From Prevotella sp. CAG:279 (GTDB lineage: Bacteria > Bacillota > Clostridia > Lachnospirales > Lachnospiraceae): 64,000 nucleotides of DNA. The DNA lies in assembly GCA_963637505.1 (NCBI GenBank), contig CAVHNP010000001.1:36879-100878 (forward strand), in the 5' to 3' direction. The notes beneath the pieces are model-generated. The model made no database searches. It was not told where the DNA came from and worked only from the letters and a program-made list of their open reading frames with translations. A program made the translations under genes and the position numbers. Below, one piece after another: positions 8,974-62,483 of the stretch (its first letter is position 1; each line of letters begins with the position of its first letter).

Positions 8974-11875
8974 TCTTACCATTGATGGCCGACAGCTTCA
9001 GGTTCCGGAGGGATATACTCTCCTGAATGCGGCCCGCCAGAATGGTATTAAGATACCTACTCTCTGTTATCTGGAGAAGGTCAATGAGATTGGCTCCTGC
9101 CGACTCTGTGTTGTAGAAGTGGAAGGAGAAAATAAGCTTTTAACCGCCTGCAATACGATCGCAAGAGACGGCATGATCGTTCATACCATGAGTGATAAGG
9201 TAGTTGCTTACCGAAAGATGGTATTGAATCTGCTTCTTTCCAATCATCATCAGGACTGCTTCTCCTGTGCCTCTAACGGCAAATGTGAGTTACAGGCAGT
9301 CTGTAATGAGTATGGTGTCTATCGTACCAGCTATAGCGGAACCCGATATAAGATCGAGGCCACCGAGAAAAATGCCCATCCTTTCCTGGGATACCGACCG
9401 ACTCTCTGTATTCAGTGTCAGAGATGTGTCGCTACCTGCGATAAAGTAAGCGGAAGAGGAGCGATCCAGCTCAGCAAAACAGGTATGTTCACCGTCATTG
9501 ACGCTCCTTTCGGAGAAAATTGGGAAAATACCACGATTTGCGAATCCTGCGGTAACTGTGCCGAAGCCTGTCCGACAGGCGCCCTTTATAAGAAGGCAGC
9601 CAAGAAATACCGTGAATGGGATCTGAAACGTGTCCGCACGACCTGTCCCCACTGTGCAGTCGGCTGCCAGATGGATCTTTTGGTTAAGAACAACCACATC
9701 GTTGGTGTGGAAGGTGCAGACGGACCGACAAACCATAATAGACTTTGCGTAAAAGGCCGTTTTGGTTCCTATAAGTTCGTAGAGTCTGGCGACCGTCTGA
9801 CAGATCCTCTGATCAAGGATAGAGAAACCGGCGAATTCAGAAAAGCAAGCTGGGATGAAGCACTTGATCTGGTTGCAAGTAAGTTTACTGCGATCCGAGA
9901 CGAATACGGCGGAGATGCACTTGCCGGATTTGCCTGCTCAAGAAGTGCAAATGAAGATATTTATATGCTTCAGAAAATGGTCCGCACAGTTTTCCAGACA
10001 AACAATACGGATAACTGTGCCCGTGTCTGACATGCCCCTACCGTCTCCGGTCTGGCGACAACATTGGGCTCCGGTGCGATGACGAACACCATTGCAGACA
10101 TTACCCAGGAATCTGACGTGATCATGATCGTTGGATCCAACTCTGAAGAAGCACATCCGGTACTCGGAATGCAGCTGAGAGCAGCTGTAAGAAGAGGTGC
10201 AAAGCTGATCGTAGCTGACCCGCGTGAGATCGACCTTGCAAAGAAAGCCAATGTGCACCTGAAATTACGCCCCGGTACAAACGTTGCCTTCATCAACGCC
10301 CTCCTTCATGTCATTATTGAAGAGGGAATGACAGATGAGGAATTCATCAAAGAACGTACTGAGGTAGAAGAATACGAAAAACTGAAAAAACTGGTTGAGA
10401 AATATACCCCTGAATATTCCGCTAAGATCTGTAATCTGGATCCGGACGATATTCGTGAGGCAGCCCGCCTTTATGCAAAGGCCGATAAGGCTCCGATCAT
10501 TTACTGTCTGGGTGTTACAGAGCATTCCACCGGTACAGAGGGCGTTATGTCCCTTTCCAATCTGGCCATGATAACCGGAAAACTCGGTCGTCCGGGCTGC
10601 GGTGTAAACCCGATCCGAGGTCAGAACAATGTACAGGGTGCCTGCGATATGGGTGCTATGCCGACCGACTTTACAGGATATCAGAAGGTTCATATCCCTG
10701 AGAATCGTGAGAAGTTTGAGAAAGCATGGGGCGTGAAGCTGAATCCGACCCCGGGTACAAAGGCAACCGAATGCTTCCCTGCTATGATCGAAGGCAAGAT
10801 CAAGGGACTCTTTATCTTCGGCGAGGATCCGATGCGTACCGATCCCGATACCCATCATGTTCTCCATGCCTTAGAAAGCCTTGATTTCCTGGTTGTAGAT
10901 GAGCTCTTTATGACAGAGACCGCAAAACTGGCTGATGTGGTTCTGCCGGGTCGCTCCTATGCGGAGAAGGAAGGAACCTTCTCTAATACAGAGCGTCGTG
11001 TGCAGCGTATCCGTAAGGCCATCACGGTTCCCGGCAACAGCCGTCTGGATACAGATATCTTTACCGATATCATGAACAGAATGGGTTATCCGCAGCCTTA
11101 CCTGACTGCAGCTGAGATCATGGATGAGATTGCTTCCCTGACACCGAGCTTTACCGGTATCTCCCATGCGAGACTGGATAGCGAGGAGATTGGCGGAAAC
11201 GGCATTCAGTGGCCCTGTCCTTCCAAGGATCATCCGGGTACACCGATCATGCATGTCGGCATGTTCAGCCGCGGAAAAGGTAACTATTACCTGGCAGAAT
11301 ATAAGCCTTCTCAGGAGCTTCCGGATGATGACTATCCGCTGATCATGATGACAGGCCGAAATCTCTATCACTACAATGCGATGGCGATGACAGATAAGAC
11401 ACCGGGACTGATGGAAATCTCCGGACACTCTTACATTGAGGTCAATACAAAGGATGCGGAAAAAGCCGGCATCCACGACGGAGAGCGTATTCGCGTTTCT
11501 TCCCGCCGAGGAACCATTTCCTCCGAGGCTCGCGTTTCGGATAAGACCAATCCGGGTGAATGCTGGATGCCTTTCCACTTCCTGGATGGTAATTCAAACT
11601 GGCTGACCAATGATGCACTCGACAGTATTGCCCGTGCACCGGAATATAAGGTTTGTGCCGTTAAGATCGAAAAGATTCCGGAAGAGGAAGCTTACACCAA
11701 GGATGGTGTATATATTACCCAGGCAATGATCGCCGAGAAGCGGAATCAGATCTATGCAGAACAGCTCGCAATTCCGACCCGCTGTGCAAACGGTGAGAGC
11801 GTAGCCATCACCAGAAGTGTGGATGATTATTCTACCCTGGTTACAGAAGGCTGTGACGGATGCTGCGGTGAGTAA
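8966..11875 (+). CDS. fdhA: Formate dehydrogenase alpha subunit, selenocysteine-containing (969 aa, U at codon 355)
   Basis: Track ORFs 8966..10030 and 10064..11875 are in the same frame and separated only by TGA 10028-10030. The Cys paralog reads NNTDNCARV-C-H at the same position. It has N-terminal 2Fe-2S/4Fe-4S clusters (CRLCVVEV, CIQCQRCVATC, CESCGNCAEACP, TTCPHCAVGC) and a MopB catalytic domain. Confidence 0.9.
10031..10069 (+). promoter_or_regulatory. Bacterial SECIS hairpin directly 3' of UGA-355
   Basis: Eighteen nt after the UGA there is an apical GGUCU loop closed by CC/GG. The stem continues GUC/GAC, and an outer GCCC/GGGC helix spans 10034-10069. I recall the same UGA-to-GGUC spacing for the E. 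coli fdhF SECIS. Confidence 0.65.
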
Positions 11876-11967: not shown

Positions 11968-12062
11968 GGGTGCAGAAGGGTGGCTGGTGTGCCCTCCGGT
12001 CTTCAAAACCGGTATGAGCTGATTTCGGCTCGGGTGGGTTCGATTCCCACCTGTACCCGCCA
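11968..12062 (+). tRNA. selC: tRNA-Sec (anticodon UCA)
   Basis: Hand-folded features: 8-bp acceptor stem (GGGUGCAG/CUGUACCC), anticodon arm CCGGU-CUUCAAA-ACCGG, 6-bp long variable arm (GAGCUG/CGGCUC), T arm GUGGG-UUCGAUU-CCCAC, discriminator G and encoded CCA. Confidence 0.9.
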
Positions 12063-13692: not shown

Positions 13693-15630
13693 ATGAAACA
13701 TATTGTTTTGGGTACAGCCGGTCATATCGATCACGGCAAGACCCTCCTTACAAAAGCCCTGACCGGCATTGATACCGACCGCCTGGCAGAAGAGAAGAAG
13801 CGGGGCATTACCATCGAGCTGGGCTTTGCCCCCATGACCTTATCCGACGGAAATAAGATCAGCCTTGTTGACGTCCCCGGCCATGAAAAATTCGTCAAGA
13901 CCATGATGGCCGGCGCCTCCGGTATCGATGGTGTTTTGCTTATTATTGCTGCAGATGACGGTATTATGCCCCAGACCAGGGAACATCTGGATATCATTCG
14001 TCTCCTTCACGTACAAAAGGGTCTTCTTGTGATCACAAAATGCGATCTTGCAACAGAGGAAAGAATTTCCGAGGTAAAAGCTTCTCTCAAAGAGCTTACA
14101 AAGGGAAGCTGCCTGGAAAATGCCCCCATCTGCGAAGTATCTGCTCTGACCGGAAGCGGTATGGAGGAGCTGAAAAAAGAAATCGAAGCTCTGGTTGCCC
14201 AATTAGAAGAAAGAAAGGGCAATAAACCGGCCAGACTGCAGGCCGATCGGGCCTTTCCCGTCAGCGGCTTCGGTACGGTTGCAACCGGCACCTTAACAGA
14301 GGGCACTCTGCATGTAGGAGACAGTATCGAAATCTATCCGCAAAAAGAAGTCTGCCAGATCAGAAGTCTGCAAAATCATAATAAAAACGAGGATTCTGCC
14401 TTTGCAGGATCCAGAACAGCCATGAGTTTTTCCGGCTTGAAAAAGGATCTTCAGATCAAAGGCTCTGCCATTGCGGAGCCGGATTCCATGATCGTAACAA
14501 ATTTTCTGGATGTTTTCCTGCAGATCACACCGGATTGCAAGTATCAGATCAAGAATTCCTCCCAGCTTCATTTTTTCCATGGAACAGAAGAGGTCATAGC
14601 CAAGCTGCGCCTTCTGGACTGCGATAAACTCCTGCCCGGACAAAGCGGCTATGCCCAGATGAAACTCTCCAAGGGAATTGCTGTCCGCCTGGATGATTCC
14701 TTTCTTCTCCGCTTCTTTTCTCCGGTGATCACAATCGGAGGCGGAAAGATCCTATCCTGCCAGGGTAAGCGGCTTCGCCGTCATTATCAGCCGGTTCTGG
14801 AAAGACTGAAAAAACTAAATAGTAGAGATGAGGCCGAAAAGCTGGAGATCCGCATCGAAGAAGCCGGCATTCTTCCTATTTCCAGGCATCTGCTCCGGAC
14901 CAGAGCCAATCAGTCAGAAGAAGAATATCGCCCTGCTGAAGAAAAGCTTCTGCAAAGCGGCAGAATTTTTGAGATAAGAGACGGAAAACTGATCAGCCAG
15001 TCCGCCATTGAAGAAAGATGGGAAAAATGCAGAGAGCTTCTGCAGGCTTTTCATAAAAGCTATTCCCTCCAACCCGGCATGAAGATTGCCGAATGGAGAA
15101 AAAGACTCTTTCCGGAAGAAGGGGCTCCTTGTGATCAGCTCTTAGAGATCTGGTGCGAAAAAGGATTGCTGAAAGCAGAAAATGCCTATCTTTCCCTGGC
15201 TGATTTCGAGCCGGAATTCACCCAGCAGCATAAGATCATGCAAAGAAAGCTCCTGCATTATTATAAGGATGCCTGGCTCATGCCTCCGGAACAGAAGATC
15301 GTGGATAAAAAATTCGAAAAAAGGGGACCGATCTATAAGCAGATCCATATCAACATGCGAATGAACGGCCTGCTGATCGGTCTTTCGCCCAGCTATTATG
15401 TACATCACGAGGCTTATGCAGAGGCCCTGCGCATCTTCACTGAGCTATGTGAAAAGCAGGGCGGAAGTGCCAGTCTGGCGCAATTTCGAACAGCAGCGGA
15501 GATCTCCAGAAAATATTCCCAGCTTTTCCTGGAGTATTGGGATAAACACGGCATTAGCCGCAGGGTGGGGGATGAGCATGTTTTGATTTCAAAAGGCCGA
15601 GATGTTCTGCCCAGGATCAAAAGCCGTTGA
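13693..15630 (+). CDS. selB: Selenocysteine-specific elongation factor SelB
   Basis: GTPase motifs GHIDHGKT, DVPGHEKF and TKCD, plus long C-terminal winged-helix domains. The last 11 codons and the stop lie inside repeat copy A. Confidence 0.9.
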   Translation: MKHIVLGTAGHIDHGKTLLTKALTGIDTDRLAEEKKRGITIELGFAPMTLSDGNKISLVDVPGHEKFVKTMMAGASGIDGVLLIIAADDGIMPQTREHLDIIRLLHVQKGLLVITKCDLATEERISEVKASLKELTKGSCLENAPICEVSALTGSGMEELKKEIEALVAQLEERKGNKPARLQADRAFPVSGFGTVATGTLTEGTLHVGDSIEIYPQKEVCQIRSLQNHNKNEDSAFAGSRTAMSFSGLKKDLQIKGSAIAEPDSMIVTNFLDVFLQITPDCKYQIKNSSQLHFFHGTEEVIAKLRLLDCDKLLPGQSGYAQMKLSKGIAVRLDDSFLLRFFSPVITIGGGKILSCQGKRLRRHYQPVLERLKKLNSRDEAEKLEIRIEEAGILPISRHLLRTRANQSEEEYRPAEEKLLQSGRIFEIRDGKLISQSAIEERWEKCRELLQAFHKSYSLQPGMKIAEWRKRLFPEEGAPCDQLLEIWCEKGLLKAENAYLSLADFEPEFTQQHKIMQRKLLHYYKDAWLMPPEQKIVDKKFEKRGPIYKQIHINMRMNGLLIGLSPSYYVHHEAYAEALRIFTELCEKQGGSASLAQFRTAAEISRKYSQLFLEYWDKHGISRRVGDEHVLISKGRDVLPRIKSR

Positions 15631-15743
15631 AAAACCCCAGTGCTTAGCAAGAGGTGCATGGAACATGTGCCTCGAGCTTAGCATCTGCTGGGTTTTTCCC
15701 CGAGCGAAAGCGTGCTTTAGATCCGGCAGAATCATTCTCGGCC
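15595..15743 (-). repeat. Long-hairpin intergenic repeat, copy A (149 nt, inverted relative to copies B and C)
   Basis: Bounded by ggccgaga...tctcggcc. Its reverse complement aligns to copy C with 10 substitutions over 147 positions (hand alignment). Confidence 0.85.
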
Positions 15744-15812
15744 TTTGTGGCTCTAGGAATAACCATCCACACAATCCTGTAACCTCGTATTTAAGTAAAT
15801 TCTCCAAGGTTT

Positions 15813-16691
15813 TCAAGTATACTGCTCATAAACCTGCGTCCGGCATTTGCCCAGAAGGGTCAGTCCGTATTCCTCCGCCAGCTCGATCGCCGCATCGGAT
15901 ACGCTGGCTTTGCTTGCAAGGATAGGGATTCCGGCCTGAATTGCCTTCATAGCCATATCGGTCGGGATTCGTCCGCTGGAAAAGGCGATGCACTTTTTCG
16001 GATCGATTCCATGTCTTAGGGCATAGCCGATCGCTTTATCCAGGGCATTATGCCTGCCGATGTCTTCACAGGTAAAGAGGATTTCCCCTTCCCGCATGAG
16101 AAAACAGCTGTGTGTCGCCCCCGTCTGGGAATGGAGCGGCATTCCCTCTTCAAAACGCTTCGAAAGGGCATAGATCCAGTCGGCTTTCCAGTCGATGGGG
16201 TCTATTTTTTTTAGGGGAAGATCTTTTACAAAATAATCGTTTAAGATCCGGTTTCCGGTACAGCAGGAGGGTGTCACTTCTACATAGGCTTCCTCTGCTT
16301 TTTTCGCCTCCGGGATATCCCCATCCCTTGTCAGCCTTCCATCACCGTCTTTTTCCCTTCTAAAGGACTGCTCTGTACTGTCTTCTCCGCCTTCCTTTAA
16401 GGTTACAAAGGCCTGTTTGCCATATCTGCAGATATAGATCTCCTCCACATCCTCCGCTCCGGAGATGATTCCCTCTGTCAGAAGCCTTCCTAAAACAAGT
16501 TCGGTAAGCTGGGTTGGAATGCAGATCAGCTTCATGGTATGCAGATTGTTAATATAGACATCAATTGCATGCTCAACAAGAACAGACCGCCTTTTGATTG
16601 CGGTCTGTCCATCTGAGCCTACAGCTCTGTATTCTGTTTCTTTGATTGTTTCCGGTTGAAATTCAGTGTATAATTCACGAATTTTCATCAC
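15813..16691 (-). CDS. fdhD: Formate dehydrogenase accessory sulfurtransferase FdhD
   Basis: 292 aa with a C-terminal FdhD signature region (GATHSCFL..., CEDIGRHNALDKAIGYAL). It overlaps the fdhA(Cys) stop by 17 nt. Confidence 0.85.
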   Translation of the reverse strand: MMKIRELYTEFQPETIKETEYRAVGSDGQTAIKRRSVLVEHAIDVYINNLHTMKLICIPTQLTELVLGRLLTEGIISGAEDVEEIYICRYGKQAFVTLKEGGEDSTEQSFRREKDGDGRLTRDGDIPEAKKAEEAYVEVTPSCCTGNRILNDYFVKDLPLKKIDPIDWKADWIYALSKRFEEGMPLHSQTGATHSCFLMREGEILFTCEDIGRHNALDKAIGYALRHGIDPKKCIAFSSGRIPTDMAMKAIQAGIPILASKASVSDAAIELAEEYGLTLLGKCRTQVYEQYT

Positions 16692-28420: not shown

Positions 28421-28439
28421 GGCATTTCCTGCCAACAAA

Positions 28440-28453
28440 GGCCGAGAATGATT
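28440..28453 (+). repeat. Remnant of the long-hairpin repeat (5' arm only)
   Basis: ggccgagaatgatt is an exact 14-mer match to the 5' arm of the repeat (the reverse complement of copy A). Nothing follows it. Confidence 0.45.
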
Positions 28454-28496: not shown

Positions 28497-28694
28497 GTTA
28501 TGGTATTCCCAATTGAATTATTTACTCCGATCCTTTTGGCCTAAGGCAGAACTGCTTCTATGATCTCTGCTATGGTGACTGGGACGGGATTTCTGGAATC
28601 CCCGGGGTGGCAGAGGAAACTAAGCTGCCTTCCATTTATCGAAAAGGAGCAAAGAAAAAGCAGCCCCAGGTTGCTCTTTTATTCTGCATATTCA

Positions 28695-35561: not shown

Positions 35562-37063
35562 CAGTTTTCACCTCCGACCATCTTATTTGCAGAGAATTTA
35601 CCGGCTTCTTTTTTGGATGCGGAAACAGAAGAATGCAGGATTTCTTCCCGGGCATAGTCCTCTCCAAAGAGAAGCAGTTCTCTTTCCTTCTCTGAAACAT
35701 TTTTATGCTTGATCGCATTACTGATCGCAAAGATGACACCAAGAATAACCCAGACAAGAACCATGATCCATTCATGCAGGCCAAGAGAGCTTGATCCGAA
35801 AGGCATATAGAGGCTGATAAATACGGCGCAGGCAAAAATACCAAGACCTGCCATCAGCTTCCAATGTCTGATCTTCCAGGGTCTGCTCAGTTCCGGCTCC
35901 TTCCTTCTGATCTGGATAAAGGAAATTACAACGCAGAGATAAGCAACAACGGCACCCAGGGAGCTGGCATCTACAAACCAGCCAAGGGCATTTTTGCCAA
36001 GAAGGGGAGCAATAAAACCGACCAGGCCACAAAGGGCAAGGGCTGCGGAAGGCGCATTGGCTTTGTTGGTTTTGGCGAAAATTTCGGGAAGCATTTTCGC
36101 ACGGGCCATTCCAAAAAGAATTCTGCTTGCACCGACAAGCATGGCATTCCAGCTGGTCAGGATTCCGCCGATTCCGGCGACGATCAGGATATAACCTGCA
36201 ATTTTGGAACCAAAGAGGAGAGAGGCTGCATCCGCAAGAGGAATGTCCATATCTGCCAATGCTTCATTCGGAACCGCAAAACCAACACCGACAATCATAG
36301 CAATATACCAGGCCGCACCAAGTGCGATGGCAAAGATTACCATCCAGCCGATCTGCTTCAAAGGAATATCCATTTCTTCTGAAGCCTGAGGAATGACATC
36401 AAAGCCGATAAACATGGCCGGTGCAGCCATCATAACCAGCTCGATTCCGGCAATTCCATTGTTAAAAAGGGGTTTTGTATTCGCAATGTCTCCTAATGTA
36501 AGACCACCTCCAAAGAAGACGAGGCCGCCAAGAACCAGAGCTAAGGCAGCACAGGTATTAAAGATCGCGGTTAATTTCATGCCGCTCAGATGACAAAAGA
36601 GGGTAAAGGCAAGACCGATCATGCTGATGCTGACCCAGGAGAGGCTGACATCAAAACCGGCAATATTCCATAAGATGATGCTGTCCGGTAAGGGAATCAG
36701 ATAGGAAACCGCCGTTGCAAAGGCAGGTCCCTCCCAGGCAGCAACCGCCAGATAGGCAAAGCAGATGGCCCAGCCGGTAAACCAGCTGAATTTATATCCG
36801 CAGCCCCGGTAGGCCCAGACCATTTCACCGCCGGACAAGGGGAGCATAGGCGTCATCTCTGCATAGATGATACCGACGATTCCGGCCATGGCTGCCCCGA
36901 TCAAAAGGGCAATGATCGCGCCGACAGTTCCGGCATTGGTCACCCAGCTTCCGGTCAGCATGATCCAGCCCCAGCCGACGATGGCACCGAAGGCAAAGGC
37001 CCAGATATCTTTTCTTTTCAAGGTTTTTCCCAAGGAAGTACGTTCTTTTTCATAAGCATTCAT
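35561..37063 (-). CDS. APC-family permease
   Basis: 500 aa with ~12 hydrophobic helices. Its stop overlaps the aminotransferase start. Confidence 0.8.
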   Translation of the reverse strand: MNAYEKERTSLGKTLKRKDIWAFAFGAIVGWGWIMLTGSWVTNAGTVGAIIALLIGAAMAGIVGIIYAEMTPMLPLSGGEMVWAYRGCGYKFSWFTGWAICFAYLAVAAWEGPAFATAVSYLIPLPDSIILWNIAGFDVSLSWVSISMIGLAFTLFCHLSGMKLTAIFNTCAALALVLGGLVFFGGGLTLGDIANTKPLFNNGIAGIELVMMAAPAMFIGFDVIPQASEEMDIPLKQIGWMVIFAIALGAAWYIAMIVGVGFAVPNEALADMDIPLADAASLLFGSKIAGYILIVAGIGGILTSWNAMLVGASRILFGMARAKMLPEIFAKTNKANAPSAALALCGLVGFIAPLLGKNALGWFVDASSLGAVVAYLCVVISFIQIRRKEPELSRPWKIRHWKLMAGLGIFACAVFISLYMPFGSSSLGLHEWIMVLVWVILGVIFAISNAIKHKNVSEKERELLLFGEDYAREEILHSSVSASKKEAGKFSANKMVGGEN

Positions 37064-40298: not shown

Positions 40299-41804
40299 CT
40301 ATCTTTTTTTCTTGAATACTTTACTCATCATCTGCTTCTCTAATTCCAGGACCAGCTTCTCCTTGCAGATGGTAAGCACCAGGAGATAGGCTCCAAAGAA
40401 AAGAATGGCCGAGATCAGAAGGGTAATGAAGCAGTCAAAAGAACCGCTGCCCAGAGGCAGAAGCTTAACCCAGAGGGAAGCTGCCACGCTCAAAACACAG
40501 GCAAGGCCGATCGGCAGATATTGAATCTTCTGATAGGCCTCTTTTACGGTATCCCTCAGCATCACATACTGAACGATCCAGACAACCGCTTCCGCAACCA
40601 AAGTACCGATGGCCGCACCGGCAGAAGCATATTTGGGAATTAAGATCAGATTAATCAAAAGATCAACAATTGCTCCGGCAATCTCAGAAAGAAGGACAAT
40701 CTTCTCCTTGCCCAAGGGCACCAGCATCTGGATTCCCATGATATTAGTCAGACCGATAAAAAAGATGGTCGGCATGATGATCTGCATGGGAAGAATGGAG
40801 CCTGCATAGGCATTACCGGACAGGAAATAAATCCCCTCTTTTGCAAAGAGAATAAAATAGATGGTCATGGGTAAAGAGATCAGAAAGACGAAATTAATGG
40901 CCTTTTTGGAAATATCCATGAATTTATCCATCAGTCCCTGCTCTACATAGTAGGAAACTCTCGGAAGCAGAACGGCACCGAGGGAGGTTACGATCGTCGT
41001 CAAAATGCTTTTGATCTTTACCGCCGCATTATAATAGCCGACATCCGCATCTGTTTTCATAAAGCCGAGCATAACCGTATCCAGATTCAGATAAACCGTT
41101 GTCGCACAGGACATGGCAAAGAAAATGATGACTGCCTTTAAATGCTGCTTCAGGTTATAGCCGCCGATTGGCTTATAGCTGATATAACGACGGCCATGAA
41201 AGAAATTGCAGACACTCGATGCAGAAGCCGCAAAGATCGTGATCGCACCATAGATCACGTAATCTTCCTGCTTATGGATCAGAAGGAACATGGCAATGAC
41301 TGCGATGAACTTAAAGATCAAAGACCGGATTGTAATATATGAATACTGCTCCAGTCCCTTATAAAGCCATTCCATACCGATCAGGTTAAAGACCATAGTC
41401 GTGGAAATGATCAAAAGGAGGGTTCTTTCTGATTGAAATTTGGGAACCGCAAAAAGAGTGACAAGGAAGACCAGATAGGTCAAAATCGTCATGACCATAT
41501 TAATGATAAAAATCTCCTGAACGGTTCTGGTGAGCTTCTCCTTATCATCTCTTACCCTGGCACAGGCCCGGATACCATAAGTCGGAATTCCAAGCTGAGC
41601 AAACATGGCAAAATAGGTGATGACAGAAGTCGCGAATGACACTCTTCCTGTTCCGACCGGCAGTAGCACACGGGAAACATAAGGAAAGGTGATCAAAGGA
41701 AAGATGAATGACGACATGGATAAGATCGTATTCATGATAAAATTCACTGTTAAAGATGGTTTCTTCTGATTCATAACTTTATTCAAAATCCCTTCTGAAA
41801 GCAT
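40299..41804 (-). CDS. MOP-superfamily oligosaccharide flippase (Wzx-like)
   Basis: ~500 aa with 12-14 helices and a polysaccharide-biosynthesis-protein pattern. The start is ambiguous (41804 or 41774). Confidence 0.7.
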   Translation of the reverse strand: MLSEGILNKVMNQKKPSLTVNFIMNTILSMSSFIFPLITFPYVSRVLLPVGTGRVSFATSVITYFAMFAQLGIPTYGIRACARVRDDKEKLTRTVQEIFIINMVMTILTYLVFLVTLFAVPKFQSERTLLLIISTTMVFNLIGMEWLYKGLEQYSYITIRSLIFKFIAVIAMFLLIHKQEDYVIYGAITIFAASASSVCNFFHGRRYISYKPIGGYNLKQHLKAVIIFFAMSCATTVYLNLDTVMLGFMKTDADVGYYNAAVKIKSILTTIVTSLGAVLLPRVSYYVEQGLMDKFMDISKKAINFVFLISLPMTIYFILFAKEGIYFLSGNAYAGSILPMQIIMPTIFFIGLTNIMGIQMLVPLGKEKIVLLSEIAGAIVDLLINLILIPKYASAGAAIGTLVAEAVVWIVQYVMLRDTVKEAYQKIQYLPIGLACVLSVAASLWVKLLPLGSGSFDCFITLLISAILFFGAYLLVLTICKEKLVLELEKQMMSKVFKKKR

Positions 41805-41903
41805 TATAACTAATGAATTTTACCACAATCAGGCGGAATGCACCAGAGTAACGCAAGGAAACAGGCTTTGGAGCTAATAAGAATTGAGATGCATTGAGAA
41901 TAA

Positions 41904-42133
41904 GGCTGAGAATGATTCTGCCGGATCTAAAACACGCTCTCGCTCTATATCGTATCGCCCTGGCGATGCGATGCACGCGAGGCGCCATCGTGCAAAGCAC
42001 GATTTAAAATGGCGCCGGAGTCCCGAACGGAAAAACCCAGCAGATGCTAAGCTCGAGGCACATGTACCATGCACCTCTTGCTAAGCACTGGGGTTTTTCA
42101 ACGGTTTTTGATCCTGGGCAGAACATCTCAGCC
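41904..42133 (+). repeat. Long-hairpin intergenic repeat, copy B (230 nt, carries a nested 83-nt insertion)
   Basis: Bounded by ggctgaga...tctcagcc. Outside 41946-42028 it is colinear with copies A and C. Confidence 0.85.
41946..42028 (+). repeat. Nested GC-rich hairpin module inside copy B
   Basis: The first 31 nt match 12151-12181 at 27 of 31 positions. It contains the hairpins AUCGC-CCUG-GCGAU and GGCGCCAU...AUGGCGCC. Confidence 0.65.
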
Positions 42134-42156
42134 CTTTTTAATTACAAAACATCCTG

Positions 42157-42192
42157 AATCAAACAGGGGAGATGGCTAACTCCATCTCCCCT
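42157..42192 (-). terminator. Hairpin/terminator after the rubrerythrin gene
   Basis: 11-bp stem aggggagatgg / ccatctcccct. The U-tract is weak. Confidence 0.45.
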
Positions 42193-46435: not shown

Positions 46436-46552
46436 ACTGCTTTTCTCCCGATTGGTTTAACCCTAACATTTTGATTTTATCAAACCCATGGCATATGCTC
46501 AATTATTTTACGGTTTAAAAACAAGGAAAAATATGGAGGTTAGTCCTATACG

Positions 46553-46587
46553 AAAAAAGAGGAAGTGAACCTCCGTCCACTTCCTCT
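46553..46587 (-). terminator. Rho-independent terminator after the lipoprotein gene
   Basis: 10-bp stem agaggaagtg / cacttcctct followed by a T-run on the minus strand. Confidence 0.7.
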
Positions 46588-54888: not shown

Positions 54889-56202
54889 ATGAAAAAGGTA
54901 GTTAAATTCGGCGGAAGCTCTCTTGCTGATGCAAACCAGTTCAAAAAAGTTGCTGCGATCATCCACGCGGACGAGTCCCGCGTCTATGTTGTACCGAGTG
55001 CACCGGGAAAACGTTTCTCCGGCGATACAAAGGTAACAGATATGCTGCTGAAGGCATATGATATCGCTGTGAACGGTGGCGATCTTGATGCTCAGCTGAA
55101 GGCGATCAAGGCCCGCTACGATGAAATCATCAGCGGTCTGGGACTGGATTTTTCTCTCGATAAAGATTTTGAAGAAATCAAAAAGACCCTGGAAGAAGAT
55201 CCCTACCAGGACTATGCTGCTTCCAGAGGCGAATATCTGAACGGCAAGGTTCTTGCCAATTATCTGGGCTTTGAATTTATCGATGCCTATGAAGTCATCT
55301 TCTTCAATGAAGAAGGAAATGCCAACCTCTATAAGACACAGAAGGTGCTTGGCAAACGTCTTGAGACTATGCCGAATGCCGTTATCCCCGGCTTCTATGG
55401 CTGCGGAAAGGACATGAAGATCAAGACCTTCTCCAGAGGTGGTTCTGATGTAACCGGTTCCATCGTTGCTGCTTCCACCAGAGCAGAGACCTATGAGAAC
55501 TGGACCGATGTTTCCGGCTTCATGCTTACAGATCCGAGAGTCATCAAGGATCCTGTTACCATCGATACCATCACCTACAGAGAACTTCGAGAGCTCTCTT
55601 ACATGGGTGCTTCCGTTCTTCACGAGGATGCTATCTTCCCTATTCGTGCAAAGGGTATTCCAATCAATATCCGCAATACCAACGATCCGGAAGCAGATGG
55701 TACCTGGATCGTAGAAAGTACAGCCAAAAAACCGACCAATACCATTACCGGTATTGCCGGCAAGAAGGGCTTCTGTACCATTCTGGTAACCAAGGCAATG
55801 ATGAATTCCGAGATTGGCTTCTGCCGCAAGGTTCTTCAGGCCTTTGAAGAATACGGCATTTCCATCGAGCATATGCCCTCCGGTATCGATACCATGACCG
55901 TTGTTGTTCATGAGGATGAGTTCATGTGCAAGGAGCAGAAGGTCGTTTCTGCCATCCACCGCAATGCTCAGCCGGATTCCGTAGAGATCGAATCCGGCCT
56001 TTCCCTGATCGCCGTTGTAGGCCGCGGCATGAAGTCTACCAGAGGCACTGCTGCGAGGATCTTTACCGCTCTTGAGAGAGTCGGCATCAACATCCGCATG
56101 ATCGACCAGGGTTCTTCTGAACTCAATATCATTGTCGGTGTGGATGACAGCGATTTCGAGAGAGCCAGCCAGGCGATCTATGATGCTTTTATCACGAAAT
56201 AA
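54889..56202 (+). CDS. Aspartate kinase
   Basis: Start at MKKVVKFGGSSLA. A kinase domain and C-terminal ACT domains are present. Confidence 0.85.
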   Translation: MKKVVKFGGSSLADANQFKKVAAIIHADESRVYVVPSAPGKRFSGDTKVTDMLLKAYDIAVNGGDLDAQLKAIKARYDEIISGLGLDFSLDKDFEEIKKTLEEDPYQDYAASRGEYLNGKVLANYLGFEFIDAYEVIFFNEEGNANLYKTQKVLGKRLETMPNAVIPGFYGCGKDMKIKTFSRGGSDVTGSIVAASTRAETYENWTDVSGFMLTDPRVIKDPVTIDTITYRELRELSYMGASVLHEDAIFPIRAKGIPINIRNTNDPEADGTWIVESTAKKPTNTITGIAGKKGFCTILVTKAMMNSEIGFCRKVLQAFEEYGISIEHMPSGIDTMTVVVHEDEFMCKEQKVVSAIHRNAQPDSVEIESGLSLIAVVGRGMKSTRGTAARIFTALERVGINIRMIDQGSSELNIIVGVDDSDFERASQAIYDAFITK

Positions 56203-56270
56203 GGCTTGGGGCTTCGCATTTTGAGAAGAGCTAAACAACTTAGTTAACTCACATAAACCAATATGAAAAA

Positions 56271-56417
56271 GACGAGAATGATTCTGTCGGATCTAAAACA
56301 CGCTCCCGCTCGGGGAAAAACCCAGCAGATGCTAAGCTCGAGGCGCATGTTCCATGCCCCTCTTGCTAAGCACTGGGGTTTTTCAACGGTTTTTGATCCT
56401 GGACAGAACATCTCGTC
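56271..56417 (+). repeat. Long-hairpin intergenic repeat, copy C (147 nt)
   Basis: Bounded by gacgaga...tctcgtc. It lies between the convergent aspartate kinase and sbcC genes. Confidence 0.85.
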
Positions 56418-56488
56418 TTTTGCTTTACTTTTGCAAGATAGCAAAAGCTCCGGCTGAGTATTTCTGTTAAAAATTCAGACACTCGCTC

Positions 56489-59400
56489 TCACATGCCCAG
56501 CTCCACGCTGAGCGAGCTCCCCTCTCTCGTCTTCTTCACCCGAATCTGCTGGGGAATATTCTCCGTCAGCTCCTCCCGGTGGCTGATAATGCCAACCAGC
56601 TTACTGCTTCCGGACAGATTGATCAGGATATCCATGGCACCCTCTATGGATTTGCGATCCAGGGTACCAAAGCCCTCATCAATGAAAAGGGCATCCATCT
56701 GGATTCCGCCAAGATTAGAAGAAATGGTATCCGACAGACCAAGAGCCAGGCTCAAGGAAGCCTTAAAGCTCTCCCCTCCGGAGAGATTGCCCACCGGTCT
56801 TCTGTGGCCGGTATAATGATCCAGCACCTCAAGATCCAGGAAGTTACTGCTTTGTTTTCCAAGTAGATTCTCCTGTCGGTAAAGCTCATACTGCCCCTCA
56901 CTCATGGGAAGCAGCCGTCTGTTTGCCGCCGCAATGATCCCATCAAAGCCGGCTGCCTGAATATACTGCTCTAAGGTAATCTTTCCGTTTCCGGTCGTAC
57001 CCCTCACTAACTTATAGAGCCTGCTTGAAATCTCGTATTCCTTTGCTGACTTTTCCAGTTCCGGTGCCTGAGCTGTAATCTTTTCCTTCTTATCTGTATT
57101 GATCTGCAGACGGTTTTTGATCCTGTTGACCTCTTCTCTTTTGCCTTTGAGGACGAGCTGTCCCTGCTCGCAGCTTTCCTGCAGCTCTTCCAGATTGACG
57201 CGTATCTTTCCCTTGGTATTATTTTCCGCATCTTCCAGCTGCTTTTTGTTTACGAGTACAGCCTGTTTGTAAGCATTGATTCCTTCCTCTGCTTCGGAAA
57301 GCGCCTGCTCGGAAAGAAGAAATCCCTTAAGCTCCTCTTCTGAGACAAAGCCCTGCTTTTCCATGACAGAGTCCAGTTTCTCTTTTTCCGCCTTTTCCTC
57401 TGCCCGAGCCTCTTCCAGAAAACTCTTTCTGGTTTTTACAGAAGCCTTCACGGAAGCAAGAGCCTCATCTGCCGCCTTTTTCTCCTCCTCTCTTTTTTCC
57501 AGAAGGGCAAGGATCTGCTTTGCCTTCTTCTCTGCCTTGCTGCTTTCTGCCGCAGCCTTTTGCCAGCTGTCAAAGCCTAGGCCCGTCAGAGTCTTAAGCA
57601 CAGCCTCTTTCTCGGCTAGTTTTGTCAGACTTTCCTGCTTTCGAACAGTAAAGTCCTCCTTTTCCTTAGCGAGGCTCTCTCGTTCTGCTCCTCTGGCCTT
57701 TTCCAGATCTCTTTCTGCCTTCTCGAGAGCCACCTTCTCCCGGATCAGAAATTTCTCCTCGTTTTTCTTTTTCCCTAAATACTCTTCTAAAAGCGCTTTA
57801 TCCTCCGCCAAAGTCAAAAACAAAGAATCCAGGTCCTTCTTCGCCAACTCTGCGCTCGCAAGCCGCTCTACTTTCTCCGCTGAATTCGTACTCTCAAGTT
57901 TCTCTGCTTTCTCCGTTGAATCCGCGCTCGCAAGCTGCTCTGTCCTCTCCACTGCCCTCGAATACGCAAACTGCTCCGTATCCTTCTCCGCCAGCTTAGC
58001 ATATGCAAACGGTTCTTTTTTTCCCCAAGTACTTTCCTTCATGCAGGACAGAACCTGCTCCAGAAGCTGCTCCTCATATTGCATAAGGGCAGTTTTTGCC
58101 CTGATTGCCTGTGTATTAGCCTCTGTCTTTTTTTTCTGCAGCTGCTCTTCCTTCTCCTTTAATTTTTGAAAAGCTTCCTCGCTGACAGCTTCCCCCGGCA
58201 TAGTAGCCAGCTCCGGGTGATGGAGGGAGCCACAGACCGGGCATTTCATGCCCTCTTCCAAGCCTTCTGCCAGAATACCGGCCCGGCAATTATCCAGGAT
58301 TCTCTCTGCCCGAAGTTTCTCCTGACTGGCCGCTTCATAGGCATCAAAAGCTCTGCGATAGACTTTTTGTCTGTCAGCCAGCTCCTTCTCTTTTTCCTGC
58401 CGGATCCTTGCCTTGCTGACCAGGAGCTCCTTCATCTCCTTCTGCAGCCGCTCCAGCTTCTCCTTTTCTGCCAAAAGCCGGCTCAGCTGCTCCGGCAGAT
58501 CCTTTCGACTCCTTTGAAACACCTCCAGGCTCTTGATCTTCTCCTGTAAAGCCCTTTCTTTCTCCTCAAGAGACTTTTCTTCTTCTGCAAAGCCTTCGGT
58601 GCTTTTTCTTAAAGCACTCACTTCCGCTGACAGCTGGTCTCTTTGCTGATACTTAGGTTCTTCTTCCCGGATATGGTCTGCACGTTTTTGCTGGCTCTCT
58701 GCCTCCGGTCTTGCCTCTTCGGACTCTGTCAGAGCCCTTCCGGCTTCCTTCGCCTTTTTGTCGGCATTTTCCGCCTTTTTCTCCTCTTCTTTTAGTTTTC
58801 CCTCTTCTTCTCTAACCGCCTGAGCCTTTGTCAGATAGGAGAGACGGATGGGATTCAGCTCCCTGCTTGCCAGCTTCTGTCTGCCTAGCAGTTTTTCCCT
58901 CTCAGCAACTTCTTCCTTTTTTTCCTCCAGCTCTTTTTCCTTCGCTTTCAGTTCCTCAAGACGGTGAAAAAGCTGATTCACGCTCTCTCCTCTGGCAAGC
59001 TCTCCTTCTAACTTTTTCTGTCCTTCTTCGGCAGTCTCCAGCTCCGCAGAAGCCTTCTCCAGCTTCTCCTCCTCTGTTCGGATCAGATCACCGATCAGGC
59101 TCAGGATTTCTTCCAGATTCCAAAGGCTCTTTGTCTCCCCGGCCTGCTCCTGCAGCTCTGCCAGCTGCTCCGCCAGTTCTCCTTCCGGATCTGCCTCTAT
59201 ATCATCAAAATACTGGAGAATGCTGGCCTCGCTTCTTTCCTTCCGCTTGCCTCCGGCATCCATCCTTTCCTTTAGCTTAAATTCTATGCTGTTATAGCCG
59301 CCGGTCTGAAAAATGGTCCGTAAGATCTTGGTTCTTTCCTCCGTCGAGGCATTCAAAAGACTGCGAAATTCTCCCTGGGCGATCATAACGATCTGCTTAA

Positions 59401-59836
59401 ACTGCTTCTCATCGATGTGGAGCAGCTCTTTTATTGCATTGTTGACATCCTTCAGTCCTTCAATCGGTGCTTCCTGTCCCGGATAAAGGCTGGCCTTTTC
59501 ACTGACCGTGATAGTTCCGCTTCCCCTCTGCTTTTTTCTCTCATAGGAGGGGCTTCTTCGAATATGATAGTCCCGTCCCTGATGACTGAAATAAAAATCC
59601 ACAAAGGTCTCACGGCTTTCCTTTGCATACTCACTGCGCAAATTCTTTGTATCCCGGTAGGAACCGCTGGTCTTCCCATATAAGGCAAAGCAGATCGCAT
59701 CAAAAAGAGTCGTCTTTCCGGCACCGGTATCTCCGGAGATCAGGAAAAGACCTCTTTCTTCAAATTTCGTAAAATCAACCGTCACTTCGTCCGCATAAGG
59801 CCCGAATGCACTCATGATCAATTTAATCGGCTTCAT
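56489..59836 (-). CDS. sbcC: SbcC (Rad50-like) exonuclease ATPase subunit
   Basis: Walker A GDTGAGKTT, zinc hook CPVCGS, LSGGESF, LFIDEGFG and a long coiled coil. Confidence 0.9.
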   Translation of the reverse strand: MKPIKLIMSAFGPYADEVTVDFTKFEERGLFLISGDTGAGKTTLFDAICFALYGKTSGSYRDTKNLRSEYAKESRETFVDFYFSHQGRDYHIRRSPSYERKKQRGSGTITVSEKASLYPGQEAPIEGLKDVNNAIKELLHIDEKQFKQIVMIAQGEFRSLLNASTEERTKILRTIFQTGGYNSIEFKLKERMDAGGKRKERSEASILQYFDDIEADPEGELAEQLAELQEQAGETKSLWNLEEILSLIGDLIRTEEEKLEKASAELETAEEGQKKLEGELARGESVNQLFHRLEELKAKEKELEEKKEEVAEREKLLGRQKLASRELNPIRLSYLTKAQAVREEEGKLKEEEKKAENADKKAKEAGRALTESEEARPEAESQQKRADHIREEEPKYQQRDQLSAEVSALRKSTEGFAEEEKSLEEKERALQEKIKSLEVFQRSRKDLPEQLSRLLAEKEKLERLQKEMKELLVSKARIRQEKEKELADRQKVYRRAFDAYEAASQEKLRAERILDNCRAGILAEGLEEGMKCPVCGSLHHPELATMPGEAVSEEAFQKLKEKEEQLQKKKTEANTQAIRAKTALMQYEEQLLEQVLSCMKESTWGKKEPFAYAKLAEKDTEQFAYSRAVERTEQLASADSTEKAEKLESTNSAEKVERLASAELAKKDLDSLFLTLAEDKALLEEYLGKKKNEEKFLIREKVALEKAERDLEKARGAERESLAKEKEDFTVRKQESLTKLAEKEAVLKTLTGLGFDSWQKAAAESSKAEKKAKQILALLEKREEEKKAADEALASVKASVKTRKSFLEEARAEEKAEKEKLDSVMEKQGFVSEEELKGFLLSEQALSEAEEGINAYKQAVLVNKKQLEDAENNTKGKIRVNLEELQESCEQGQLVLKGKREEVNRIKNRLQINTDKKEKITAQAPELEKSAKEYEISSRLYKLVRGTTGNGKITLEQYIQAAGFDGIIAAANRRLLPMSEGQYELYRQENLLGKQSSNFLDLEVLDHYTGHRRPVGNLSGGESFKASLSLALGLSDTISSNLGGIQMDALFIDEGFGTLDRKSIEGAMDILINLSGSSKLVGIISHREELTENIPQQIRVKKTREGSSLSVELGM
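57852..57959. repeat. 3 x 36-nt imperfect tandem repeat inside the sbcC coiled coil
   Basis: The units begin at 57852, 57888 and 57924. They encode EQLASADSTEKA / EKLESTNSAEKV / ERLASAELAKKD. Confidence 0.6.
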
Positions 59837-61146: not shown

Positions 61147-61178
61147 GAAAAGGGCAGGAGACCTTTTCATCTCCTGCC
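61147..61178 (-). terminator. Terminator after the Rpn-type gene
   Basis: 10-bp perfect stem gggcaggaga / tctcctgccc, with TTTT following on the minus strand. Confidence 0.65.
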
Positions 61179-61233
61179 CCTCTTTGCTATTTTTCAGTTA
61201 CTACCCTTCGATCTTACACGATCTACCTGCCGG

Positions 61234-62213
61234 CTATACAAGCAAAAATTCTTTCTCTTTTATGATCTTTTCAATTTCTTCCGTACTCTTTTTTGTTGCC
61301 AAGGCGATCTGCTCTAAAGAGAACTTATTTTCATACATGTTCAGAATGATATTCTCTGTCGTTTTTTCTGTTGCTCTTTCTTCGATTCCTGTACTCAGAT
61401 TACACATAATTCTCACGTCCTCTCTGAACTCATTGTTGATTGGGATATTATATTCCTGTTCTATGATTTCTAACTTTTCCTCTTCTTTCAGATCACTGGA
61501 AAGCAAGGTTCCTATCAAACGATGCATCTCATAAGCTTTCTCCTGTTCCGGTATCTCATTCGTAATTCCAATCATTACGATATTCAGCAAATCCAGATTG
61601 CCCTTCCAGTCATAGGGCGTCAGCATCTCATCCTTGGTAAGATGAATGTGACTTAAACTGTTACAATCCATATTCATACAGATCCAGATGCTGAATACCT
61701 GTTTGATATCATCATAATTTGAATTCACGAAGTCTCTTTCTTTTTGCGACGAAACAAATCTGCTCACATAAAAAATAGCTCTGTTTAATATTTTATATGC
61801 AGATGGCTCATCCTTCTGGCACTCTATGTTCACGATGATCTGTGACAATCCATTTTTCATGCGTACGTAGAAAATGATATCAAACCGTATCAAGCCCTCA
61901 TTTATTTCGGCACTTTCCGTATTGAAGCCAATGATTCTTTCTCCTGCCTTATTCGCTTGCCCTGTATTGGTCAGTCCCGGTTCTATCGGATGACTCCTAC
62001 CTGCGGTTCTCCCTCGATATATTGCACCACATTTTCTGGCTTCATTCCTTTAAATTCATCAACTGTCTTGACTAGAATGTGTGCCAGTATCATTTTCTGT
62101 GCCAATAATCTTTTTACACGTGCATCATACTGTGCCTTGTCTCCCGCTGCGTTTACGGCATTTGCTATTTCAGTATTCATCCAGTAGACCTCCTTTTGTG
62201 TTGCATATAGCAT
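61234..62213 (-). pseudogene. PD-(D/E)XK nuclease family transposase / Rpn-type protein, interrupted by a frameshift near 61980-61990
   Basis: The 76-aa ORF (61983..62213) and the 219-aa ORF (61234..61893) are two parts of one protein. The downstream frame stays open back to ...PGLTNTGQANKAGERIIGFNTESAEINEGL, immediately after the upstream stop. Confidence 0.65.
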
Positions 62214-62377
62214 TTTTGCTCACAGCTGTGAAACTTCTTATCTGTAACTTTCTTTCAATGCATTACAACAAAAAAGAATCTCTACTCTACTATTATAATA
62301 ATCAAGGCCCTCCTTTGAATCAACCGAATTTTCCATCATACAGAAAGAGATCCTATATCCTTAAAGATCGAATAAAA

Positions 62378-62411
62378 GGCTGAGAATGATCCTGGGCAGA
62401 ACATCTCAGCC
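62378..62411. repeat. Short (34-nt) derivative of the long-hairpin repeat
   Basis: ggctgagaatgat + cctgggcagaacatctcagcc, i.e. the outer 5' and 3' ends of copy B joined at a shared GAT. It is followed by tttt. Confidence 0.7.
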
Positions 62412-62451
62412 TTTTGTGGCATTGCCATCCATAATTTTATCGTATAGAAAT

Positions 62452-62483
62452 CCCGATAAAGGGCATCCCCTCCGGGATGCCCT
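62452..62483 (-). terminator. Terminator after the small surface-protein gene
   Basis: agggcatccc-ctcc-gggatgccct stem, U-rich afterwards on the minus strand. Confidence 0.55.

Follow-up and report, generated by a model that had tools for sequence, protein, structure and literature searches.

Between an aspartokinase gene and sbcC, a 64,000-nucleotide (nt) stretch of DNA (positions 36,879 to 100,878 of contig CAVHNP010000001.1; hereafter the window) carries a long palindrome that recurs elsewhere in the window and in other genomes, with paired changes on its two arms. What kind of element is this, and why do its copies change in pairs? Our analysis suggests, with a probability that we put at roughly 0.6, that it belongs to a family of short palindromic repeats that lie between genes, do not code for protein and are of the MITE (miniature inverted-repeat transposable element), REPIN or ERIC type, and that some copies have probably been co-opted as terminators. 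The kind of element is already known (MITE-, REPIN-, ERIC-, bcr1- or SPRITE-like), and this family is previously uncatalogued. The host is an uncultured gut Clostridia species, probably of the Lachnospiraceae, and the nearest named relatives of its aspartokinase, at 73-79% identity, are from Lachnospiraceae and other Eubacteriales. Small palindromic repeats are known in detail from proteobacteria, Neisseria, pneumococci and the Bacillus cereus group. To our knowledge, they have received very little attention in gut Clostridia, the dominant group in catalogues of metagenome-assembled genomes (MAGs).

Structure of the element

A standard copy is about 155 nt long and forms one long imperfect hairpin. 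From base to tip, it consists of an A-run and a T-run around a G+C-rich basal stem, an inverted-repeat core, an inner stem, an asymmetric loop and the apical hairpin M1. The asymmetric loop is the site able to carry an extra branch, M2, and the predicted fold of copy B is a multi-branch structure. The full copies in the window and their parts are as follows.

56266..56421, + strand: copy C, the focal copy, a standard 155-nt element whose paired part is 56271-56417
Parts of copy C, in order: A-run, basal stem GACGAGA, core GAGAATGATTCTG, inner stem, apical hairpin, right core CAGAACATCTC, stem GTC, T-run
15591..15746, - strand: copy A, a standard element, scored 188 bits by a covariance model
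41902..42139, + strand: copy B, the longest form, with basal stem and core, side branch M2 and apical hairpin M1, scored 148 bits by the covariance model
41946..42028, + strand: M2, the 83-nt side-branch module in copy B (TATATCG...CCCGAAC), which adds extra hairpins at the asymmetric internal loop
42029..42099, + strand: M1, the 71-nt apical hairpin module of copy B, GGAAAAACCCAGCAG...CACTGGGGTTTTTC

Copy C, which scored 194 bits with the same model, folds at -75.9 kcal/mol on the + strand (z = -10.05) and at -81.2 kcal/mol on the - strand (z = -9.21). None of 200 shuffled sequences folds as stably, and the shape is unchanged when DNA parameters are used. All copies have terminator-like ends of the form A(3-7) + G(G/A)C(C/T)GAGA ... 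TCTC(G/A)(G/T)C(C) + T(3-5), with a stem-loop of about 140 nt that is far longer than those of usual terminators.

The core, GAGAATGATTCTG / CAGAACATCTC, is identical in all full copies, and the outer stem lengthens the terminal inverted repeat. In the core none of 22 columns varies, in the apical-stem block 1 of 34 does, and in the remainder 39 of 100 do (Fisher 1e-3 and 2e-5); the figure for the apical block is biased, as copy I was recovered with a 23-mer taken from that block. Irregularities of the hairpin are conserved as well. Two bulged A residues in the core, a 2-nt bulge, the internal loops and an A.A mismatch between GCTAAGC and GCTAAGC are kept in all full copies, including the one found in another MAG. 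A sequence-specific constraint is thus added on top of the structure.

Paired changes among copies

We compared copy C with the reverse complement of copy A over 56271-56417, the interval in which an earlier note on this DNA, made by reading the sequence, had described a long hairpin whose copies differ mostly by compensatory changes. The hairpin is borne out by the shuffle test above, and the note's count of differences, 10 of 147 aligned positions, is exact. Six of them make up three fully compensated pairs that keep Watson-Crick pairing (56272/56416, 56287/56403 and 56298/56390), three are unpaired (56305, 56306 and 56358), and the change of an A.C mismatch to G-C, as described, is found at 56345. 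Eight changes had been said to fall in pairs on opposite arms and to preserve or improve pairing; we count seven, and eight is reached only with the next outer pair, which lies just outside the interval. The outer stems had been quoted correctly, as GGCCGAGA/TCTCGGCC in A, GACGAGA/TCTCGTC in C and GGCTGAGA/TCTCAGCC in B. Ten random substitutions would yield at least three compensated pairs with a probability of 2.5e-5.

To extend the comparison beyond A and C, covariation was scored in two sets. The first comprised six distinct full copies with an RNAalifold consensus of 62 pairs; the second was taken on the opposite strand with copy B added after removal of M2, giving seven copies and 63 pairs. 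In each set, 13 pairs are changed on both sides, and 98.7% (six copies) or 99.1% (seven copies) of the cells are paired. Shuffled controls gave a mean of 3.4-3.8 double-changed pairs, and 0 of 500 reached the observed values for percentage paired, pairs or cells changed on both sides, or covariation score; these tests draw on seven distinct full copies that are related to one another, and the shuffle control ignores this relatedness. Sliding the pairing partners left 0-2 double-changed pairs. The double changes occur in the basal, inner and apical helices and are often private to a single copy, as with four in copy G.

The outermost part of the stem raises the possibility that the outer stems were pre-existing terminators into whose loops a shorter element had inserted. 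The outermost 3-4 bp and the A-run and T-run vary between copies yet remain perfectly complementary, with the look of an ordinary bidirectional terminator. However, the variants are only 1-2 changes apart, unlike independent terminators such as that of a sister lineage (L064), and compensated changes are also found deep within the element, at alignment columns 25/142, 36/129, 54/121, 61/114 and 83/95. Moreover, the same variants recur at unrelated sites, with GGCT/AGCC in B, D and F, GGCC in A, E and H, and GAC/GTC in C and G. Because of this recurrence, we take the outer stem and its A-run and T-run to be part of the element and not local terminators. Insertion into pre-existing terminators is largely refuted on the same ground, and we regard it as extremely improbable.

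The paired changes stand far above the controls, as would be expected if the hairpin itself were under selection, although selection is not the sole route to such changes. They could instead be a mutational by-product, arising when a newly replicated strand forms a fold-back and one of its arms serves as the template for the other, in which case the hairpin would need no function. Template switching of this kind transfers a change between arms in one step and has been documented to create and repair stems (bioRxiv 10.1101/2021.04.15.439925). Paired and unpaired columns are similarly variable here (29 of 124 versus 9 of 32), which arm-to-arm copying predicts and two-step compensation through a deleterious intermediate does not. 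Stem changes are nearly all complete doubles with few intermediates, and a compensated difference even separates M2 alleles at the same site in close strains (ATCGCCCTGGCGAT versus ATCGCTTTAGCGAT). Yet the same process would erase bulges and mismatches, and the irregularities described above are kept in every full copy. Nor would a duplex-symmetric process predict wobble pairs confined to one strand, a pattern that is seen in a small sample of five sites, and the two invariant blocks and the dispersal of the copies would be left unexplained. We therefore consider template switching unlikely as the explanation of the paired changes.

The wobble pairs suggest that pairing is strand-asymmetric and acts in a single strand. 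At each of five sites, what is a G.U pair on one strand is A.C on its complement; no site has the reverse arrangement, an asymmetry that with five sites reaches about P = 0.06 (two-sided). Pairing is better on the strand complementary to the orientation that begins with GAGAATGATTCTG; this strand folds 5 kcal/mol lower and corresponds to the mRNA-sense strand in five of six unambiguous contexts (B, D, G and both L001 copies, the exception being H).

These features would also be expected if the copies were not mobile DNA but a multi-copy gene whose product is a structured non-coding RNA, be it a trans-acting small RNA or a cis-acting RNase III or stability element. Strong covariation, fold z-scores of about -9 to -10, and wobble tolerance that is strand-specific and usually falls on the mRNA-sense strand all agree with such a gene. 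Correia elements undergo RNase III processing, and by analogy the 25-bp near-continuous basal helix would be a plausible RNase III substrate. Nevertheless, no promoter-like site associated with the copies was found in scans of the intergenic regions, and Rfam 15 gave no match at the element at the gathering threshold, with chance-level matches only at E values up to 10. The element also overlaps the coding end of a gene (selB, below), and its density of about one copy per 15-18 kb, together with the presence or absence of modules between strains, the scars and the mini-copies, is typical of mobile repeats. An RNA gene is accordingly a very unlikely reading.

Copies at other loci and in other strains

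Within the window, a blastn search with the region matched copy A at 15592-15746 (- strand, 92% identical) and copy B at 41898-42129, where the match is interrupted by an insertion. It also returned a 30-nt match at 62387-62416, which corresponds to a mini-copy, D. The reduced and empty sites of the window are as follows.

62374..62415, + strand: mini-copy D, 42 nt, basal stem and core joined, AAAAGGCTGAGAATGAT|CCTGGGCAGAACATCTCAGCCTTTT, a hairpin of ordinary terminator size
28437..28453, + strand: solo left-end fragment, 17 nt, AAAGGCCGAGAATGATT
46544..46559: site empty in the window, filled in strain L006 by variant copy H

The same region was retrieved from other MAGs of the species by exact protein sequence, with DNA identities of 96-98%; MAGs of this species include GCA_963660315.1 and GCA_963641495.1. 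Paralogues were found at unrelated loci of same-species MAGs, namely copy E (L009), copies F and G (L008) and copy H (L006). As the element is open in one frame and sometimes called as a gene, its + frame peptide was used as a protein query; it returned three proteins and two new loci, the source of copies E, F and G, while the - frame peptide gave no match. A 23-mer scan of one genome per species, a set from which the window's own species is apparently absent, identified one locus (L001). This locus, on contig CAVEOK010000026.1 of a MAG labelled Oscillospiraceae, holds one full copy at 88% identity and one short variant.

Several sites differ between strains in the modules that they retain. 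Site B carries M2 and M1 in the window, M2 without M1 in strains L074-L077, and only the left 19 nt in L078. The solo fragment at 28437-28453 is a deletion scar of the same type as this last allele. About 60 nt downstream of the scar, at 28513-28665, we note a molybdenum-cofactor riboswitch (Rfam RF01055, 68 bits). At the H site, L006 has 204 extra bases that include copy H and are bounded by TCCTATA repeats, L003 is truncated, and the window is empty; copy H itself consists of the arms with a short M2-like hairpin in place of the apex. Mini-copy D, in which the two element ends are fused at a TGAT microhomology, is also present in L003 (17492-17533) and absent from L002. Finally, the site 3' of the aspartokinase gene holds a full copy in some strains and a mini hairpin in others; in L005 and L007 the mini hairpin, with a GAC outer stem, follows the gene directly and the flanks differ. 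These alleles demonstrate that copies lose modules by deletion, and dispersal and polymorphism together suggest that the family is mobile.

Copy C is identical in strains L002, L003, L004 and L006, with 0 differences in 163 nt, although local divergence is only about 1.3% and other intergenic DNA likewise shows 0 differences in 189 nt. Across copy C there is a sharp step in divergence between strains, from about 1.3% in the aspartokinase gene to 8-20% in the 3' part of sbcC (56489-58000). In L005 (11381-11706) and L007 (2495-2575), the sequence past the mini hairpin is unrelated to the sbcC region of the window and looks highly structured, and the contigs end there; an Rfam scan of the differing L005 downstream sequence gave sub-threshold matches only, the best being an S15 leader at 26.6 bits.

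Two further observations concern mini-copy D. Copies F and D share 16 bases beyond the T-run (L008:10147-10162 and window 62416-62431, GTGGCATAGCCATACA and GTGGCATTGCCATCCA), and these fold into an additional short hairpin. This may mean that the GGCT subfamily is longer on that side, or that F and D have a duplication in common. In addition, mini-copy D lies at the right end of a 1.3-kb strain-specific cassette (61157-62458) between AAAGGGCA direct repeats. The gene of this cassette is split into open reading frames (ORFs) of 76 and 219 residues in the window and is intact (315 residues) in L003; the cassette ORFs have no Pfam match. Other strains have a gene for an AAA_14/DUF4143 ATPase at the neighbouring position instead.

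Searches further afield returned no additional members. Megablast against E. coli genomes and blastn against plasmid and phage collections gave no match, and three scans of viral contigs gave zero matches. A metagenome scan with a degenerate 30-mer pattern of the right arm also gave zero matches, while a scan with both cores and a variable gap gave 54, the chance number for 20 specified bases, none of them element-like by blastn. No copy was detected by blastn or the covariance model in about 100 kb of relatives' loci (aspartokinase 78-98% identical), and none lies in the 10 kb beyond the right edge of the window. A related species (L071:7911-9269; also L072 and L073) has a Rep3-type plasmid replication gene two genes upstream of the aspartokinase gene, on contigs of 90-164 kb.

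The copies have practical consequences for the sequence record of this species. MAG and Logan contigs end inside them (L006, ending at 11512; L079:2963-2990; L082:9996-10035), and spurious short genes are called across the element (P0001-P0003 and a 71-residue gene in L006). Because contigs end in copies and gene callers predict short ORFs there, the family degrades both the assembly and the annotation of the species.

Gene context and putative terminator role

Copy C lies between the convergent genes for aspartokinase (54889-56202, +) and sbcC (56489-59836, -), and copy A between the convergent genes selB (13693-15630, +) and fdhD (15813-16688, -). The selB frame enters copy A by 39 nt, so that the stop codon and about 12 C-terminal residues are encoded by the element; the last Pfam domain of the protein, SelB wing_3, is complete by residue 631 of 645, ahead of copy A. 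Copies E and F also lie between convergent genes. Copy B is found between genes on the same strand, upstream of a flippase gene (40299-41804, -) and, in the sense of transcription, ~30 nt past the canonical terminator of a rubrerythrin gene (42165-42192, -).

The surroundings of copy A form a selenium-utilisation locus, with a selenocysteine tRNA gene (tRNA-Sec, 11968-12058, 73 bits), selB, in which the SelB domains are complete, and, on the other strand, fdhD.

Outside the element, scans detected no terminator-like site in any of the four intergenic regions between convergent genes (A, C, E and F). In a sister lineage (L064 and L065, aspartokinase 98% identical), the interval 3' of the aspartokinase gene, which in the window is occupied by copy C, contains a canonical bidirectional terminator, AAAAACGGGGCTGTCGCATGCGACAGCCCCGTTTTTTTTT. 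The other terminators of the window's genome are of the canonical type. Because in every copy the G+C-rich basal stem lies between runs of A and T, the convergent-gene copies can be read as bidirectional terminators and 3'-end hairpins. They probably serve as terminators for both genes and leave a 3'-end hairpin on the transcripts, judging from the sequence of their ends and the comparison with the sister lineage.

The tandem-context copies B, D, G and H present a different picture. They follow a canonical terminator by 5-50 nt; the H site, for example, is directly 3' of the terminator at 46558-46587 (-). Such a placement is consistent with insertions being tolerated there or being directed preferentially to terminator regions. 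It is also what would be expected of a selfish REPIN- or PATE-like element with no host role, moved as a single-stranded DNA (ssDNA) hairpin by a Y1 (HUH) transposase of the IS200/IS605 or RAYT type, since a second terminator would be superfluous at these sites and the 3'-end positions would reflect tolerated insertion or such a preference. The long hairpin, invariant core and conserved bulges, wobble tolerance confined to one strand, and the lack of any target duplication seen at the copies are likewise consistent with this explanation. REPINs, however, are paired short REP sequences with a GTAG-type head, and the ends of IS200/IS605 elements carry separate subterminal hairpins, not one whole-length palindrome. 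In the four convergent regions the scans found no separate terminator-like site, whereas a relative has one after the same aspartokinase gene, which suggests that the element took over this role. No RAYT (Y1 transposase) gene is evident in the window or the loci, where no systematic Pfam scan of all ORFs was made. On balance, we hold an element lacking any host role to be doubtful.

Several observations weigh against a mobile family with co-opted terminators, in addition to the limits given above for the apical block, the related copies and the wobble sites. None of the polymorphic sites (B, H, D and aspartokinase-downstream) shows a clean gain with a precise empty site, and all polymorphisms observed can be read as deletions or rearrangements: module losses, scars or larger rearrangements. 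No consistent direct repeat that could represent a target-site duplication flanks any of the nine copies. For the tandem-context copies a terminator role is unneeded, and both the ~140-nt size of the hairpin and the T-runs of only 3-4 nt in some copies are unfavorable to such a role.

The family of mobile palindromic repeats nevertheless remains our preferred reading, and the proposals of the earlier note have largely held. The placement that it had described, at 3' ends or between convergent genes, applies to A and C, which lie between convergent genes, and to B, which is 3' of the rubrerythrin gene. It had suggested a structured RNA, a terminator-associated element or a MITE/REP-like element as opposed to decaying junk, and this is supported by the covariation, the dispersal, the strain differences and the terminator-like ends. 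The contrary outcomes that it had named, copies confined to the window or covariation lost when more copies are added, did not occur: copies lie elsewhere, and covariation stands above the controls.

Proposed mechanism and significance

We propose that a non-autonomous element would have multiplied in the genome as a unit via a single-stranded hairpin form, either ssDNA or RNA. Its invariant bulged core would be recognised by a protein supplied in trans, and only variants that still fold would propagate, with the consequence that copies differ by paired changes. Hairpin-templated repair by template switching may add to these changes. At convergent genes, the base of the hairpin with its T-runs would act as a bidirectional intrinsic terminator. 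Selection could favour the element's ability to be copied rather than a host function.

A more specific version of this scheme is speculative, and we think it quite unlikely. It envisages a hairpin-dependent replicator of Clostridia that would be copied through ssDNA or RNA by a dedicated host-resident enzyme, as REPINs are by RAYTs, while the host relies on it as a bidirectional terminator of convergent genes. The wobble pattern and the bulged core would then be the footprint of the enzyme, and the L001 copy would represent a transfer between bacterial families.

The family has implications beyond its own classification. The repeat rewrites protein C-termini, as in selB, and it probably supplies terminators at convergent genes, to judge by its ends and positions. 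It also offers a compact natural test case for whether palindromes acquire paired changes because a folded single strand is under selection or because the hairpin acts as a template for mutation. Each alternative makes predictions that can be measured here in the conserved bulges and in the wobble pairs on one strand.

Comparison with known repeat families

Among known systems, REPINs, hairpin-forming REP doublets that RAYT transposases mobilise in Pseudomonas and enterobacteria, resemble the element in being whole-length hairpins of ~100-150 nt with highly conserved end blocks and a less conserved middle, and in being extragenic, present in many copies, accompanied by singlet remnants and free of target duplications. 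As in REPINs (PMC3116915), two inverted conserved ends and a spacer form one hairpin, with compensatory changes in the spacer. The element differs in having no short G+C-rich REP palindrome or GTAG head, in its A-run/T-run terminator-like ends and modular three-way form, and in its host, a Clostridia gut anaerobe and not a proteobacterium.

The ERIC or IRU sequences of Enterobacteriaceae (~127 bp) are likewise imperfect palindromes over their whole length, intergenic and co-transcribed with their neighbours. According to Wilson and Sharp (2006), longer and shorter ERIC versions reportedly derive from internal insertions and deletions at fixed sites. The E. coli genomes searched show no sequence similarity to the element, however, and the base of ERIC is not terminator-like. 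ERIC-type elements also have TA flanks and target duplications (PMC3184786), none of which was seen in this family.

Together with ERIC, the bcr1, Correia, RUP/BOX and SPRITE repeats are described in the Delihas review (PMC3184786). The bcr1 element of the Bacillus cereus group (~155 bp) is transcribed, non-coding and unevenly distributed across strains, with compensatory changes that keep its RNA structure (PMC3184786). It shares with the present element a Firmicutes host and the same size. In contrast, bcr1 is flanked by 5-bp direct repeats, which were not seen here, and is described as cruciform-like, whereas our element is a single long hairpin with terminator-like ends; no search detected sequence similarity between the two.

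Another Firmicutes intergenic repeat, of ~105 nt, has a predicted fold that resembles an intrinsic terminator (PMC3184786), and BOX elements share the modular composition. The element has no sequence similarity to either and no match among the Rfam models scanned, and it differs from both as a long palindrome with an invariant inverted-repeat core and ends that are terminator-like in both directions.

Correia elements of Neisseria (CREE/NEMIS) are similar in size (100-150 nt), carry terminal inverted repeats, form a long RNA hairpin when co-transcribed, occur in full and internally deleted forms, and affect neighbouring transcripts (PMC3184786). Their TA target duplication, IHF sites and outward promoters were not seen here; they belong to another phylum, and there is no sequence similarity. 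By the strict definition of a MITE, the family has the terminal inverted repeats but not the target-site duplication. Although it has no sequence in common with the known repeats, the family shares their architecture and their evolutionary pattern.

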